Both the position numbers and the translations under genes were made by a program. This document shows, piece by piece, positions 48,524 to 60,598 of a stretch of 64,000 nucleotides of DNA. The stretch is from a virus: the IMG/VR virus record IMGVR_UViG_3300021599_000885, one strand, 5' to 3'. Each line of letters opens with the position of its first letter. Within the stretch, counting starts at the first letter, position 1. A model generated the notes under the pieces. It did not search any database. It was not told where the DNA came from and saw nothing but the letters and a program-made list of their open reading frames with translations.

Positions 48524-48706
48524 TCACCAGGCAGGCAGTGCCTCCTGTGCCTCATCAGCCCACACCTCAGCGAACTGACCCGCGATGGCGTAGGCACTGA
48601 TGCCCAACTGGGGCTGCAGGCCCGAACCGATGGCGGAGTCGTCGTTGCAGCGGGCGGTCCACACGATCTGACGGGTACGGAGGTCGGAGGATTGGGAGAG
48701 GATCAT
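48524..48706 (-). CDS. Small early-region hypothetical protein
   Basis: 60 aa with a TAGGAT -10 box upstream. Confidence 0.65.
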   Translation of the reverse strand: MILSQSSDLRTRQIVWTARCNDDSAIGSGLQPQLGISAYAIAGQFAEVWADEAQEALPAW

Positions 48707-48771
48707 GGGTCTGTCGGTTGAACTGAGAGTATCCTACAGCATCAGGGGGCACGAAGGTCCCCCCGTTACAA

Positions 48772-49521
48772 TCAGTAGGAAATGACCTGAGGCGCGGCAT
48801 CGGCAACCAGAGCGGCGACCTTATCCTGCTGCAGTTTCAGCACGACCTGAGAGTTGCGGTTCGCTTTGCTCAAACCCAGAAACGCCTTGATACCGTTGTT
48901 GCTGGTCACACGGAGACGGAGACCAAGGTCCAGGGTTTCACCGTTACCCTTGAGAACGATGCGGCGGGAGGTCGTGCCCTTACCAGCGACCAGGTGGGCA
49001 GTGTAACCAGCAGAGAGGCAACGGGCGGCACGGATGGTATCGTGACCCATCACATAGCAGCGTTGGGCGGCGGTGTCGTTGATGACCATCGACATCCCAT
49101 GGTTGGCGTCGATCAGTTCAGAGATCAACCAAGCGGTGAGGGTCTCAGAGGTGATGGCGTTCAGGGCATCGCTGCAAACCTCATTGAACAGGTCACGGGT
49201 CTCTTCCACAATAGCGGTACGCTCAGCGGCACCCCAGTTACGGGCGGTGCTGATAAAGGAGCGGAAGTCCTCAAAGCGGGAGGAGTCCAGAAGGGCATCG
49301 GTTTGGGAGGTGTTCACCCAGTCAAAGGAACCGTTACGAAGACCTGCCTTGTGCTTGATGCTGATAGGAGTAGCACCCGCCATAGCGTCTGCCTTGTTAC
49401 GGGTGCCGCCCAGGTGGGTGACGGTCTCAGCGAACACCTGATGGGCGTTCAGCAGAGCGATGGTGTCGTGCTCATTAGCGACGCCAGAGTGGTGAACGGA
49501 ACCGTTGGTTTGGAAGGTCAT
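48772..49521 (-). CDS. PD-(D/E)XK restriction-endonuclease-like protein
   Basis: GVANE...GGTRNKAD...ISIK motif order, as in MspI/HinP1I-type nucleases. Confidence 0.55.
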   Translation of the reverse strand: MTFQTNGSVHHSGVANEHDTIALLNAHQVFAETVTHLGGTRNKADAMAGATPISIKHKAGLRNGSFDWVNTSQTDALLDSSRFEDFRSFISTARNWGAAERTAIVEETRDLFNEVCSDALNAITSETLTAWLISELIDANHGMSMVINDTAAQRCYVMGHDTIRAARCLSAGYTAHLVAGKGTTSRRIVLKGNGETLDLGLRLRVTSNNGIKAFLGLSKANRNSQVVLKLQQDKVAALVADAAPQVISY

Positions 49522-49613
49522 TTGGGAATCGGGTGAGCGCCACCCGTCTGAACTGAGAGTAATGTAAGCGATTTTGGGGGTCAGGTCAAGACCCCCGGAC
49601 AGTTGTCAGACCG

Positions 49614-49865
49614 TCACAGGTCAGCCAGCATCTCATCCAACTCATCGGTGTCGATGGTAGGGTCCATCCAGCGAGCACCGTCAGGAGTCATCTGCCCGAA
49701 CTGAGATTCCAGGCGGGGGATCAGGCGATCATAGGAATCGTAGCGGCAGGCGACCTTGTAAAGGTTCTCATCGTTCTGGAGCCAGAGGGCGACGTTCCAG
49801 GTTGCCCAATTTGCCCATCCGTTGTAGGTTTCGGTTTCGGGGATCATGGAGGTGAGTGCTTGCAT
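49614..49865 (-). CDS. Hypothetical early-region protein (YNGWANWATWNVALW family)
   Basis: ORF track; has its own cassette promoter. Confidence 0.8.
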   Translation of the reverse strand: MQALTSMIPETETYNGWANWATWNVALWLQNDENLYKVACRYDSYDRLIPRLESQFGQMTPDGARWMDPTIDTDELDEMLADL

Positions 49866-49897
49866 TGGTTGGTTGCGTGTGAGTGTATTGTAAGGGG

Positions 49898-50068
49898 TCA
49901 GGCGACCAGCGCCGACTCCATGTGGACGGTTTGCAGATTGACCTCAGCCCAATCGTATTCTTCCTTCAGTTGGGCGCAGCGGGCATCAGCAGCAGACTTG
50001 CAATCCCACAGGGAGCAATGATCATCAGATTCATAGAAGAATCCAGCGGTGACGACGTAGACTTGCAT
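49898..50068 (-). CDS. Small early-region protein, 56 aa
   Basis: Hand-translated MQVYVVTAGFFYESDDH...MESALVA*; cassette promoter upstream. Confidence 0.7.
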   Translation of the reverse strand: MQVYVVTAGFFYESDDHCSLWDCKSAADARCAQLKEEYDWAEVNLQTVHMESALVA

Positions 50069-50102
50069 CGGGTTTCCTTTGAACTGAGATCAGTATAAGG
50101 GG

Positions 50103-50270
50103 TCAGCGGGCGATCAGGTCACCAGTGGTGTGCAGTAGGTCTGCTGTCACAGTGCGGATGGGTCGGATCGGTTCCCATAGCAACCACAGCACAACAGCGG
50201 TAACGGTCAAGCGGAGCATGGTCTGTCGGTGAAACTCAGGGGAGCGGGAGCGGGTCAGAGCGTTGATCAT
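50103..50270 (-). CDS. Small early-region protein with a hydrophobic segment, 55 aa
   Basis: MINALTRSRSPEFHRQTMLRLTVTAVVLWLLWEPIR...; ATGA overlap with the upstream gene. Confidence 0.65.
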   Translation of the reverse strand: MINALTRSRSPEFHRQTMLRLTVTAVVLWLLWEPIRPIRTVTADLLHTTGDLIAR

Positions 50271-58346: not shown

Positions 58347-58550
58347 TCATCCCCACGCTTCCACATATTCAATAAGAGTAAATCCTTCGTCAGTCTGCGT
58401 TTCCTCAACCAACTCATCATAGGTCATCTCTTTCAATCCTTCCAGATAATCTTCAGGAGATACATCCACATCAGGATCATAATCATCATGACAAAGAAAG
58501 ACATACTCATTGTAAAGTGCCTCAATCAACAGTTCTTTGGGGAAATTCAT
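58347..58550 (-). CDS. Small acidic hypothetical protein
   Basis: ORF track; 67 aa. Confidence 0.75.
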   Translation of the reverse strand: MNFPKELLIEALYNEYVFLCHDDYDPDVDVSPEDYLEGLKEMTYDELVEETQTDEGFTLIEYVEAWG

Positions 58551-58634
58551 TTTCTTTGTTGAGATGATTAAACCAGGGAGAGAATAATGCTAGTGCCGCC
58601 CATGCAACACTAGCAGAAATGATAAGGAAGTAAA

Positions 58635-58985
58635 TCACTTATAAAGATAACCTCCTGCCCAGTCACAACGCTCAAGCATTTGCTCACGGGAGTTGATAAT
58701 CAGCACATTGTAACGCTCTCCCTTAGCAGGTGCTTTAATGCTAGCAGGTTTGTAGACAGAACCAGTCTTCTTATCAATGAAAGCGTGAATGCTATCGCGG
58801 CGATCACCAATGTGCATGAAGACTTTGTGATACTTACGCCCAGAAGAGTCCAGAGAGTAGAAGTAACCGTCAGGAGCATCTTGCTGGAGAGCATCACACA
58901 GCATCATACCATACTTAACAATGTTAAGATAGATGGTGTTCTGTGCGTCCTTCTGGGCAGCGTAGTCAGCGAAGGTGGTGGACAT
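58635..58985 (-). CDS. Phage hypothetical protein (HAFIDKKTGSVYKPAS family)
   Basis: Start taken at MSTTF, downstream of the cassette promoter. Confidence 0.8.
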   Translation of the reverse strand: MSTTFADYAAQKDAQNTIYLNIVKYGMMLCDALQQDAPDGYFYSLDSSGRKYHKVFMHIGDRRDSIHAFIDKKTGSVYKPASIKAPAKGERYNVLIINSREQMLERCDWAGGYLYK

Positions 58986-59037
58986 CGGTTGCTTGCGTAT
59001 GAAGGTATTATAGGGCATCCTAGACGCCTCTCAGGGG

Positions 59038-59163
59038 TCAGTATGCCAGTTCGGGAACTGGATCCCAGGAGTCGTCCTCTTTCATGTATCCCATCCAGTC
59101 TTTAGGATCTACATCATAGATCTCAATCTCACGAATTTCATCCAGAATCTCAGATAAGTCCAT
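59038..59163 (-). CDS. Small acidic protein, 41 aa
   Basis: MDLSEILDEIREIE...DPVPELAY*. Confidence 0.65.
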   Translation of the reverse strand: MDLSEILDEIREIEIYDVDPKDWMGYMKEDDSWDPVPELAY

Positions 59164-59207
59164 GAAGTTGACCCTCAAATTGTTTAGTTATTGTAGCATA
59201 AGGCAGA

Positions 59208-59594
59208 CTAAACCGCCAGTGCTCCAGAAGGAATTTCTACAATCTCAGGCAGTTTGCTATCATCAAACTGGTGCATGTTGTAGCACACCCATTCACCATT
59301 ACGGAAGACATAAGCATACTCTTCGCTGTTGTCGGGCAGCAGGTATTCTCCAAGGAAAGCATCAAGGCGAGGAGGGCAATTCTCACCACGAGCAGAATAA
59401 TACTCTGCTTCCTTGTCATCATTCCAACAGGAACTCATATCACCACCATCAATCAGTTCAGAAACTTTCTCTTTGGTGTTGTAATGAGTGTTCAGAATAC
59501 GACCCAACCATTCGGGATACCCATCCCAATGATGATAGCTTGAAAGAATAGAACCGTCAGAGAGTTCAATTCCAATTCTGGAGCGAGTCGCCAT
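59208..59594 (-). CDS. Phage hypothetical protein (MATRSRIG...YHHWDGYP family)
   Basis: 128 aa with a cassette promoter. Confidence 0.82.
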   Translation of the reverse strand: MATRSRIGIELSDGSILSSYHHWDGYPEWLGRILNTHYNTKEKVSELIDGGDMSSCWNDDKEAEYYSARGENCPPRLDAFLGEYLLPDNSEEYAYVFRNGEWVCYNMHQFDDSKLPEIVEIPSGALAV

Positions 59595-59614
59595 TGCCTT
59601 TGTTTGAACTGAAG

Positions 59615-60598
59615 TCAGTATAGGGCATCCACAAGCGGGTTTGATGCCTGCTGTACCAGTTCATCAACTGTCTCCTGTGCAATGGTGATAGCATCGGGAT
59701 TCACGTCCAGGGTGACGCAATTTCGGTTCAGGTTAAAAGCGGAAATAGCAGTCGTTCCAGATCCACAGAAGGGATCCAGAACCCATCCACCCTCAGGACA
59801 TGATGACTTTATGATACGTTCTAACAGTTTCAGGGGCTTTTGTGTGGGATATTTACGCTTATTCTTCTCACTTCTGCTGATAAAGTATACATCATCCCAC
59901 AAATTCTGCACTGGAACACCTTTGGACTCATGAGAATAGATTTTCTTGTAGATATTGTTTGCACCGTAGTGCAAACGGTCCTGGGCGTCCAGTTCTTCCA
60001 GTTTTTCCCTTGTTATACGGAACCCAAACTGTGGATTATATCCTTTGTACTCAAATCTTGCACAAGGACGACTCTTCTCACCGCTAACTTTAGCGAGAGC
60101 ATAATAACCAACCTCATCCTTGTTTTGGAAACTATTCGCAGCATATACTGGATCCAGAGAGGTATATTCAACCTCAAAGTATGGACTACCTTTACGGAAG
60201 ACCATAATGCTGTCTACGATGTTACCCCAACCGTTCTTGATATTGTTCTTTGGACCGCTGCGTTTCCAAGAAATATTTGTGTAGAAAGCGTCACGAATCT
60301 TGCGATTAACTTTAGACAATACCAGAGCATTACCAATGAAGTTATTATGACAATACATCCACCCATCTTTATTCAGTTTGGCGTAGGCATTGTTGATAAC
60401 TTCAGCATACCAGTCAATATAATCATCAAAGGAAGTCCAGTTGTCTGAGAATCCTTTCTCTTGACCATCTTCCTCTTGCATAGTAAAGTCCCTCTGCAAT
60501 CCAAAGGGAGGATCCATATAAACTAGGTCAAATGTCTGGTCAACAGTATTCAGTTCTTCAACGGGTTTCTGAAGAATCTTGATCTCAGACATAATCAA
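59615..60598 (-). CDS. Beta-class N6-adenine/N4-cytosine DNA methyltransferase
   Basis: N-terminal DPPF (motif IV), YPTQKP and C-terminal VLDPFCGSGTT (motif I). Confidence 0.93.
   Translation of the reverse strand: MIMSEIKILQKPVEELNTVDQTFDLVYMDPPFGLQRDFTMQEEDGQEKGFSDNWTSFDDYIDWYAEVINNAYAKLNKDGWMYCHNNFIGNALVLSKVNRKIRDAFYTNISWKRSGPKNNIKNGWGNIVDSIMVFRKGSPYFEVEYTSLDPVYAANSFQNKDEVGYYALAKVSGEKSRPCARFEYKGYNPQFGFRITREKLEELDAQDRLHYGANNIYKKIYSHESKGVPVQNLWDDVYFISRSEKNKRKYPTQKPLKLLERIIKSSCPEGGWVLDPFCGSGTTAISAFNLNRNCVTLDVNPDAITIAQETVDELVQQASNPLVDALY

Follow-up and report, generated by a model that had tools for sequence, protein, structure and literature searches.

What starts the transcription of the small, early-type genes of T4-like cyanophages, and which protein reads their promoters? 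The motA and asiA genes are absent from T4-like cyanophages (PMC5780444), and the onset of transcription in these phages, which do without the MotA/AsiA system of T4, is only partly understood. The question is raised here by an array of fourteen repeated promoter elements, each composed of a palindrome and a -10 hexamer, in IMGVR_UViG_3300021599_000885, a viral contig of 98 kb from IMG/VR. The array lies in the right-hand 64,000 nucleotides of this contig, a stretch called the window, and positions are those of the window unless stated otherwise. We propose that the array is a set of early-class transcription units with composite promoters, which would be switched on by the host regulator PlmA at a site of the type found at yfr2 genes, a reading to which we give somewhat better than an even chance.

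The contig has an estimated completeness of about 50%, and megablast found no close phage relative in GenBank, the contig giving short matches only, to Synechococcus and Prochlorococcus myoviruses. Relatives show at most 66% amino acid identity for a 301-residue marker protein. Positions 1-47 kb of the window, all on the minus strand, encode T4-type late proteins (gp23, scaffold, portal gp20, sheath, terminase, neck and gp6-like baseplate). From 48.5 kb on there are about 50 small genes, also on the minus strand, among which the Kyanoviridae families Kyano_Gp96, DUF7717, DUF6267 and DUF7249 are represented, as well as genes for a DNA methyltransferase and a CP12-domain protein. The phage is an uncultured T4-like cyanomyovirus, and the genes of the array are small Kyanoviridae genes of unassigned function that plausibly belong to the early class.

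A composite promoter with fixed geometry

All fourteen elements lie on the minus strand, as do the genes that they head, and are named below by the first position of their palindrome. The palindrome is an imperfect 22-bp sequence with two-fold symmetry and the consensus GTGmCAGTT-N4-AACTGkCAC, of which TGGACAGTT...AACTGTCCA is a frequent variant. It is separated from a -10 hexamer by 29 nt in two copies, 30 nt in seven and 31 nt in five. The hexamer is TATAAT in five copies, TATACT in another five, and TACAAT, TACATT, TATTCT or CATACT in the remaining ones. The centre of the palindrome is located 40-42 bp upstream of the first -10 base, at about -54 from the predicted start site, and the whole palindrome would span about -65 to -44, entirely upstream of the -35 position. 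A good -35 hexamer at 17 bp is present in only two of the fourteen copies, 49596 (TTGACC) and 51470 (TTGACT), and because the -35 is usually absent these promoters should need an activator. Start codons follow the -10 hexamer at 6-39 nt across the fourteen units.

When up to three mismatches are allowed, the palindrome pattern shows eight matches against 0.37 expected. A scan of the whole 98-kb contig for composite sites, defined by at least 14 of the 18 consensus bases and TAnnnT at 29-31 nt, gave 13 sites against 0.1 in dinucleotide shuffles, with a shuffle maximum of 1. A chance origin of the motif and its fixed geometry is thereby excluded. The scan by consensus and geometry found no composite copy in the late module (1-47 kb). 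The longest exact run shared by two cassettes measures 8 nt in the median and never more than 24 nt; cassettes 50687 and 50882 are identical over 24 nt spanning the -10 and the ATG, and AAGGTAATCAAG is present in the leaders of 55592, 57512 and 57765. A preliminary description of this DNA had listed fourteen copies at 29-31 nt from a -10 hexamer, mostly without a -35 box, with flanks shared in subfamilies and none in the late module, and had supposed a dimeric factor bound some 54 bp ahead of the start site. Every copy was found again where it had been placed, the counts given above agree with the other statements, and the symmetric half-sites centred near -54, at promoters mostly devoid of a -35, are those that such a factor would use.

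Two features of the cassettes bear on their predicted start sites and spacers. In cassettes 50687, 50882 and 51726, with start codons at 50643, 50840 and 51682, only 6 nt lie between the -10 hexamer and the ATG, which starts 7 nt past the -10; this suggests that they produce leaderless mRNAs, and since the ATG stands at the position expected for leaderless transcripts in three cassettes, the predicted start sites are indirectly backed. Terminator-like hairpins with T-runs are located inside the 30-nt spacer of 52253 (52221-52247) and of two units outside the window (G000 ~24945-24972 and 27343-27370). These hairpins are G+C-rich and constitute the terminator of the upstream gene, with the -35 region doubling as terminator. 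As terminators fit inside it, the spacer appears to be free in sequence provided that its length is kept.

The element in other cyanophages

The exact palindrome (16 specified bases) was found on more than 118 IMG/VR contigs, a lower bound, and among the matches listed a -10-like hexamer stands at 28-32 nt in about 100 orientations. Elements are also abundant in seven syntenic relatives. In many relatives 8 nt separate the palindrome from a TTGAC, which in turn stands at 17 bp from the -10. The complete design is thus site, 8 nt, -35, 17 nt and -10, of which the present phage has mostly lost the -35. In Syn9, the composite, with the -10 at 30-32 nt from the palindrome, is located before gp4 (ssb), gp61, gp68, gp73 and gp75 (helicase), all in the first 50 kb.

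In their 2016 work on Syn9 and P-TIM40, Doron et al. reportedly found a novel regulatory element at the early genes of T4-like cyanophages. The composite is most likely this early-gene element, because it occurs at five places in Syn9 and on more than 100 IMG/VR contigs; the identification rests on its presence in Syn9 and its spread among cyanophages, not on the published motif. Full-text searches of the open literature found no paper printing the Doron 2016 motif. The preliminary description had mentioned a similar early motif in Syn9, which is borne out by the composite at the five Syn9 genes. As a set of promoters the array is nothing unusual, since the class to which it belongs had been reported for Syn9 before.

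A probable symmetric protein-binding site

Position 5 of the palindrome is C on both arms in all 16 copies compared. Position 4 can be A or C on either strand, and no more than four of the 16 copies have it paired with its counterpart. Across the copies there are 40 deviations confined to one arm against seven double changes that keep a pair, and folding of the 22-mer is weak, with minimum free energy (MFE) z-scores mostly between -2 and +1. Because each arm keeps its half-site sequence while pairing lapses, the palindrome looks like the target of a symmetric, dimeric DNA-binding protein and not like a structured RNA or a cruciform. Operators of GntR-family regulators follow a GT-Nx-AC rule, and the inner GTT-N4-AAC of the palindrome agrees with it, a point to be compared with the discussion in PMC6191309.

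Other known site types were compared with the palindrome and discarded. A CRP/NtcA site (TGTGA-N6-TCACA or GTA-N8-TAC, centred at -41.5 or -61.5) was ruled out by the half-site GTGmCAGTT, the 4-nt centre and the centring near -54, and a resemblance to the sigma-54 element (TGGCAC) was rejected on half-site, spacing and host biology.

The same site at host yfr2 promoters

A scan of 185,579 species genomes found the exact palindrome at no fewer than 120 loci, and among the loci listed many are cyanobacterial by title, belonging to Nostoc, Anabaena, Tolypothrix, Fischerella, Calothrix, Stigonema and others. In these cyanobacterial loci the palindrome is located 31-32 nt before a -10 hexamer, and downstream of the -10 there is either a conserved RNA-like sequence or the small RNA (sRNA) Cyano-1, which is Yfr2. 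Cyano-1 reaches the Rfam gathering score past the -10 in three of the exact-palindrome loci (L175, L187 and L228).

The position was then evaluated at 36 Cyano-1 loci, which were drawn from sampled cyanobacterial genomes, some of them 1.6-2.7 Mb in size, using a matrix built from the fourteen copies of this phage only and, as background, windows from the same 36 loci. Between -72 and -50, 24 of the 36 loci scored above the 95th background percentile and 19 above the 99th (Mann-Whitney p = 6e-15). Full palindromes are present at many of these loci; in the smallest genomes the yfr2 position mostly keeps the half-site GTGACAGTT(A/G) only. In a pattern scan of 401 cyanobacterial genomes with at most one mismatch, matches exceeded those of the reversed control only modestly, and it was the test of position at the Cyano-1 loci that was informative. 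By these comparisons, the palindrome is not phage-specific and corresponds to the upstream site of cyanobacterial yfr2 promoters.

The yfr2 promoters of marine picocyanobacteria contain CGRE1, a conserved palindromic motif of 21-22 nt, which pulls down the GntR-family protein PMM1637 (PlmA) and gives a shift in electrophoretic mobility shift assay (EMSA) that is lost with R50A, and PMM1637 raises the output of a yfr2 promoter reporter in E. coli (Lambrecht et al. 2018, PMC6191309). The motif was found nowhere else in the MED4 genome (PMC6778093). Since the phage site matches the site upstream of the Yfr2 genes, we propose PlmA as the reader of the phage sites, for which it is at present the best candidate. 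No link of CGRE1 or PlmA to phages appeared in any paper found by full-text searches of the open literature.

According to this proposal, each transcription unit would start at a composite promoter, with the symmetric site near -54 followed by the -10. PlmA dimers already existing in the host would dock on the injected phage DNA near -54, just upstream of the -35 position, and would help the host sigma-70-type RNA polymerase to fire the -35-less units before any phage protein exists.

Several observations weigh against it. A centre at about -54 is neither the classical class I nor the classical class II activator position. The yfr2 sites of the sampled genomes of picocyanobacterial size are mostly half-sites or degenerate. 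The stated start of CGRE1 is at -55 to -57 (PMC6191309), and the phage palindrome starts at about -65, 8-10 nt upstream of it, with its 7th base (GTTG/GTTA) near -58. A rebuild of CGRE1 from the published text, GTTR-N3-GTG..CAC-N3-YAAC, had no match at yfr2 loci. CGRE1 is likely the phage-type palindrome, an equation that rests on position and on the GTGACAGTT(G/A) half-site and not on the published logo.

Written out as GTTA-N3-GTGTACAC-N3-TAAC and GTTG-N3-GTGNCAC-N3-CAAC, this rebuild gave zero matches in five genomes of 1.6-1.7 Mb; in five genomes of 2.1-2.3 Mb it gave matches at control level, none of them at yfr2 loci. The rebuild was dropped, and the proposed connection was retained.

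A further group of host loci was observed in Nostocales. In L124, L125, L127 and about 35 others, the exact palindrome is located 32 nt before TATTCT or TATCCT, followed by a conserved sequence (GCAAGGAGTGATACCACTTCAC...). Rfam does not recognize this sequence, which may represent a second Yfr2-like sRNA family under the same type of site.

Alternative readers and functions of the site

The palindrome could instead be read by a phage-encoded or virion-carried protein, its likeness to the yfr2 site being convergent or otherwise exploited. T4-type phages bring or make their own transcription modifiers, and by analogy with the transcription factors of T4 the same might hold here; in addition, the contig is only about half complete, and dozens of the small proteins encoded in the region have no known fold. 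We nevertheless consider this reader unlikely, as the same site, at the same distance from the -10, stands before sRNA genes of cyanobacteria, and because it does so a host reader exists, one having been shown biochemically (PMC6191309). Furthermore, no GntR domain was found in this contig or in the complete Syn9 genome, and no Pfam DNA-binding domain at E <= 0.01 was found in the tested early-region proteins of the window, with the exception of a sub-threshold HicA-like (dsRNA-binding-type) N-terminus. The units that fire first, moreover, cannot await a phage gene product.

A second alternative keeps a protein at the site and reverses its effect: the palindrome would be a shut-off operator, bound by a repressor that ends early transcription or by PlmA acting as repressor, and the promoters would fire unaided. 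GntR-family proteins are more often repressors, and many copies in the relatives have a good -35 (TTGAC), at which an activator is not strictly needed. On the other hand, the site at about -65 to -44, wholly upstream of the -35, has a placement typical of activators that would leave the polymerase unoccluded, twelve of the fourteen promoters of the present phage have no usable -35, and PMM1637 increased the output of the yfr2 promoter in the reporter assay (PMC6191309). We regard repression at these sites as improbable.

Reshuffling of cassettes among relatives

Many of these small genes are also present in the relatives, where their order differs and elements are found throughout. Adjacency of neighbouring genes was kept in 32 of 130 comparisons across junctions with an element (98 broken) and in 166 of 306 across other junctions (140 broken), which gives an odds ratio of 0.28 (p = 1e-8), for counts that are not phylogenetically independent. 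At several element-free junctions, none of the relatives keeps the adjacency. The g57447 cassette, headed by element 4, follows a different gene in L278 and L261, and in this one aligned case nucleotide homology sets in precisely with the palindrome and extends as far as the stop codon. As far as gene order can tell, the cassettes are units of reshuffling among relatives, although this may simply follow from their being self-contained units of promoter, gene and, in some cases, terminator.

The preliminary description had gone further and compared the elements with the promoter-early stem-loop (PeSL) cassettes of RB49-type T4-like phages, long and near-identical repeats with a stem-loop, taking them to serve also as recombination points for gene gain and loss whose breakpoints an alignment of relatives should reveal. 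If this were their main function, promoter activity would be secondary. That cassettes are reshuffled, that breaks are enriched at elements, that homology begins at the palindrome in the g57447 case and that leader subfamilies are common to several cassettes all stood in favour of the comparison. The part concerning recombination did not stand equally well: because the copies share at most 24 identical nt (median 8), far below the near-identical PeSL repeats, and have no stem-loop signature, a PeSL-type role is only weakly supported. Junctions without elements also break, and if selection preserves transcription units intact, one would in any case expect breaks at the edges of promoters. The motif has moreover kept its sequence in phages and hosts that are far apart, and a signal for recombination would not require this. 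We therefore give little credence to elements that serve mainly for recombination.

Finally, it is very improbable that the palindrome acts in the RNA, as a hairpin at the 3' end of the preceding message with the function of a terminator, stabilizer or processing site. In favour of such a role, the palindrome and the stop codon of the preceding gene often overlap, and a 9-bp stem is possible in the best copy. It was rejected on the lapsed pairing and weak z-scores described above; in addition, no T-run follows the palindrome, and true terminator hairpins sit separately, within the spacer of some copies.

Units of the array

The elements, all on the minus strand, are numbered from the right-hand end. 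Element 1 (59617..59674; palindrome 59653-59674, 30 nt, TATACT at 59617-59622) is located in the DNA methyltransferase gene, within its 3' end, and heads a 128-residue gene (59208-59594). Element 2 (59007..59064; palindrome 59043-59064, 30 nt, TATAAT at 59007-59012) heads the DUF7717 gene, with its start at 58985, and four more genes, down to a 158-residue gene at 57730-58206. Elements 3 (57729..57786; palindrome 57765-57786) and 4 (57476..57533; palindrome 57512-57533) both show a 30-nt spacer, TATAAT and AAGGTAATCAAG in the leader; the former heads a 54-residue gene (57538-57702) and the latter a 77-residue and an 83-residue gene. The best copy of the palindrome, with 18 of 18 consensus bases, belongs to element 5 (56841..56898; palindrome 56877-56898, 30 nt, TATAAT), which heads genes of 48, 54 and 301 residues, the last one of the DUF6267 family. 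Element 6 (55555..55613; palindrome 55592-55613, 31 nt, TATACT), also with AAGGTAATCAAG in the leader, heads a 66-residue gene and a run of about nine genes without a further element, down to 53187. The gene that closes this long unit (53187-53855, minus strand) encodes a protein of 222 residues with an N-terminus similar to the HicA toxin, at a Pfam E of 4e-5 that is below the cut-off, and with a match to phrog_353 'toxin'.

The remaining elements lie to the left of the repeat region described below. Element 7 (52217..52274; palindrome 52253-52274, 30 nt, TATTCT), with its terminator-like hairpin in the spacer, heads genes of 44, 35 and 57 residues. In element 8 (51689..51747; palindrome 51726-51747, 31 nt, TATAAT) the ATG is located 6 nt past the -10. 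Element 9 (51433..51491) shows the complete order of palindrome (51470-51491), 8 nt, TTGACT, 17 nt and CATACT, and heads a gene of the Kyano_Gp96 family (51059-51406). Elements 10 (50847..50903; palindrome 50882-50903, 29 nt, TATACT) and 11 (50650..50708; palindrome 50687-50708, 31 nt, TATACT), which have the 24 identical bases, are each followed by an ATG 6 nt on; element 10 also faces a TATAAT on the plus strand at 30 nt (50934-50939). Element 12 (50092..50150; palindrome 50129-50150, 31 nt, TATACT) is degenerate and heads a 56-residue gene, and element 13 (49887..49944; palindrome 49923-49944, 30 nt, TACAAT) is the most degenerate copy and heads the DUF7249 gene. Element 14 (49561..49617) consists of palindrome (49596-49617), 6 nt, TTGACC, 17 nt and TACATT, and heads a 249-residue gene (48772-49521).

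An orphan palindrome with 16 of 18 consensus bases, absent from the preliminary description, is located at 52355..52376, on the edge of the repeat region and with no gene-proximal promoter context. Two further full units lie outside the window, at G000 24975 and 27373, in the replication-gene part of the contig near gp45/46/47-like genes; they precede an AAA_5 (CobS-like) gene and a gene for a 713-residue protein.

Other features of the region

The palindrome at 50882-50903 is bidirectional. On the plus strand, the TATAAT 30 nt away precedes about 115 nt of non-coding sequence, within 50904-51062, which stop at a bidirectional terminator (51034-51053). The region 50904-51062 is conserved in relatives, with 94% identity over 192 nt in L263 and 77-79% in L108, L018 and L260; its 5' half, with GAAGGAGG at about +8, hardly varies, and the ATG is not conserved. 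The predicted plus-strand RNA folds well (MFE z = -3.5), and Rfam has no family for it or its relatives. We consider it a candidate phage sRNA, which would be driven by the same type of site as the host Yfr2.

A dense repeat region at 52280-53170 interrupts the array. It contains GATACGAATTCATATCAT in three to four copies, CTCGTCGAGAT in six to seven copies (52629-52857), some of them 30-32 bp apart, the 11-bp tandem GGGGTTTATAA in about five copies (52945-53042), CACAAGACCAGGAGGG in two copies and an AT-rich tract with a terminator. Many relatives show 68-75% DNA identity over about 500 nt of this region, and the adjacency of its two small open reading frames is kept in all 29 of the 29 relatives.

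The block 48700-50950 has a G+C content of 56.7%, against 39.4% for the window, and holds seven promoter units, which are more degenerate there. The homologous blocks of relatives are also G+C-rich: 58% against 46% in L261, 54% against 40% in L274 and 53% against 43% in L286.

Significance and comparison with known systems

With the array belonging to a known promoter class, the interesting part is the link of these phage promoters to host PlmA. PlmA is a GntR regulator wired to PII-PipX carbon/nitrogen sensing, which in the host controls little beyond the Yfr2 sRNAs. T4-like cyanophages might start their infection programme by borrowing it, with early firing coupled to the nutrient and light state of the host and PlmA possibly drawn away from the weaker yfr2 sites, an idea of titration based on at least fourteen near-consensus sites per phage genome; we put forward this wider picture tentatively, at somewhat less than an even chance. 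If host PlmA does read the early promoters, a named and purifiable host protein would be the switch of infection onset in some of the most abundant virus-host pairs of the ocean, PlmA, whose known regulon is tiny, would have a second biological role, and phage gene timing would be linked to the nutrient state of the host. The involvement of PlmA is testable at once with the existing EMSA and reporter system.

Four known systems can be compared with the array. The PeSL cassettes of RB49-type phages are likewise early promoters that bracket small variable genes, in an order that differs among relatives; however, only about 16 motif positions and the -10 are common to the copies described here, exact runs do not exceed 24 nt, and in place of the conserved stem-loop of PeSL there is a palindrome with unconserved pairing and weak z-scores. 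The element of Doron 2016 has in common with the present one that it is reportedly a conserved element, not sigma-70-only, before small early-type genes of a T4-like cyanophage, and the difference is that the copies in the present phage mostly lack the -35 seen in relatives. T4 middle promoters, with the MotA box at -30 and AsiA, likewise combine a -10 with an activator site that replaces the -35, whereas the present site is symmetric, further upstream (about -54) and probably read by a host-encoded protein. Finally, the CGRE1/PlmA promoters of the host likewise have a 21-22-nt palindrome, which immediately precedes the -35 position of a promoter driven by its -10. Their published description and start (-55 to -57) map imperfectly onto the phage palindrome, and the two also differ in use: the host has one to few such promoters, all of them for sRNA, whereas the phage has fourteen in 11 kb, heading protein genes.

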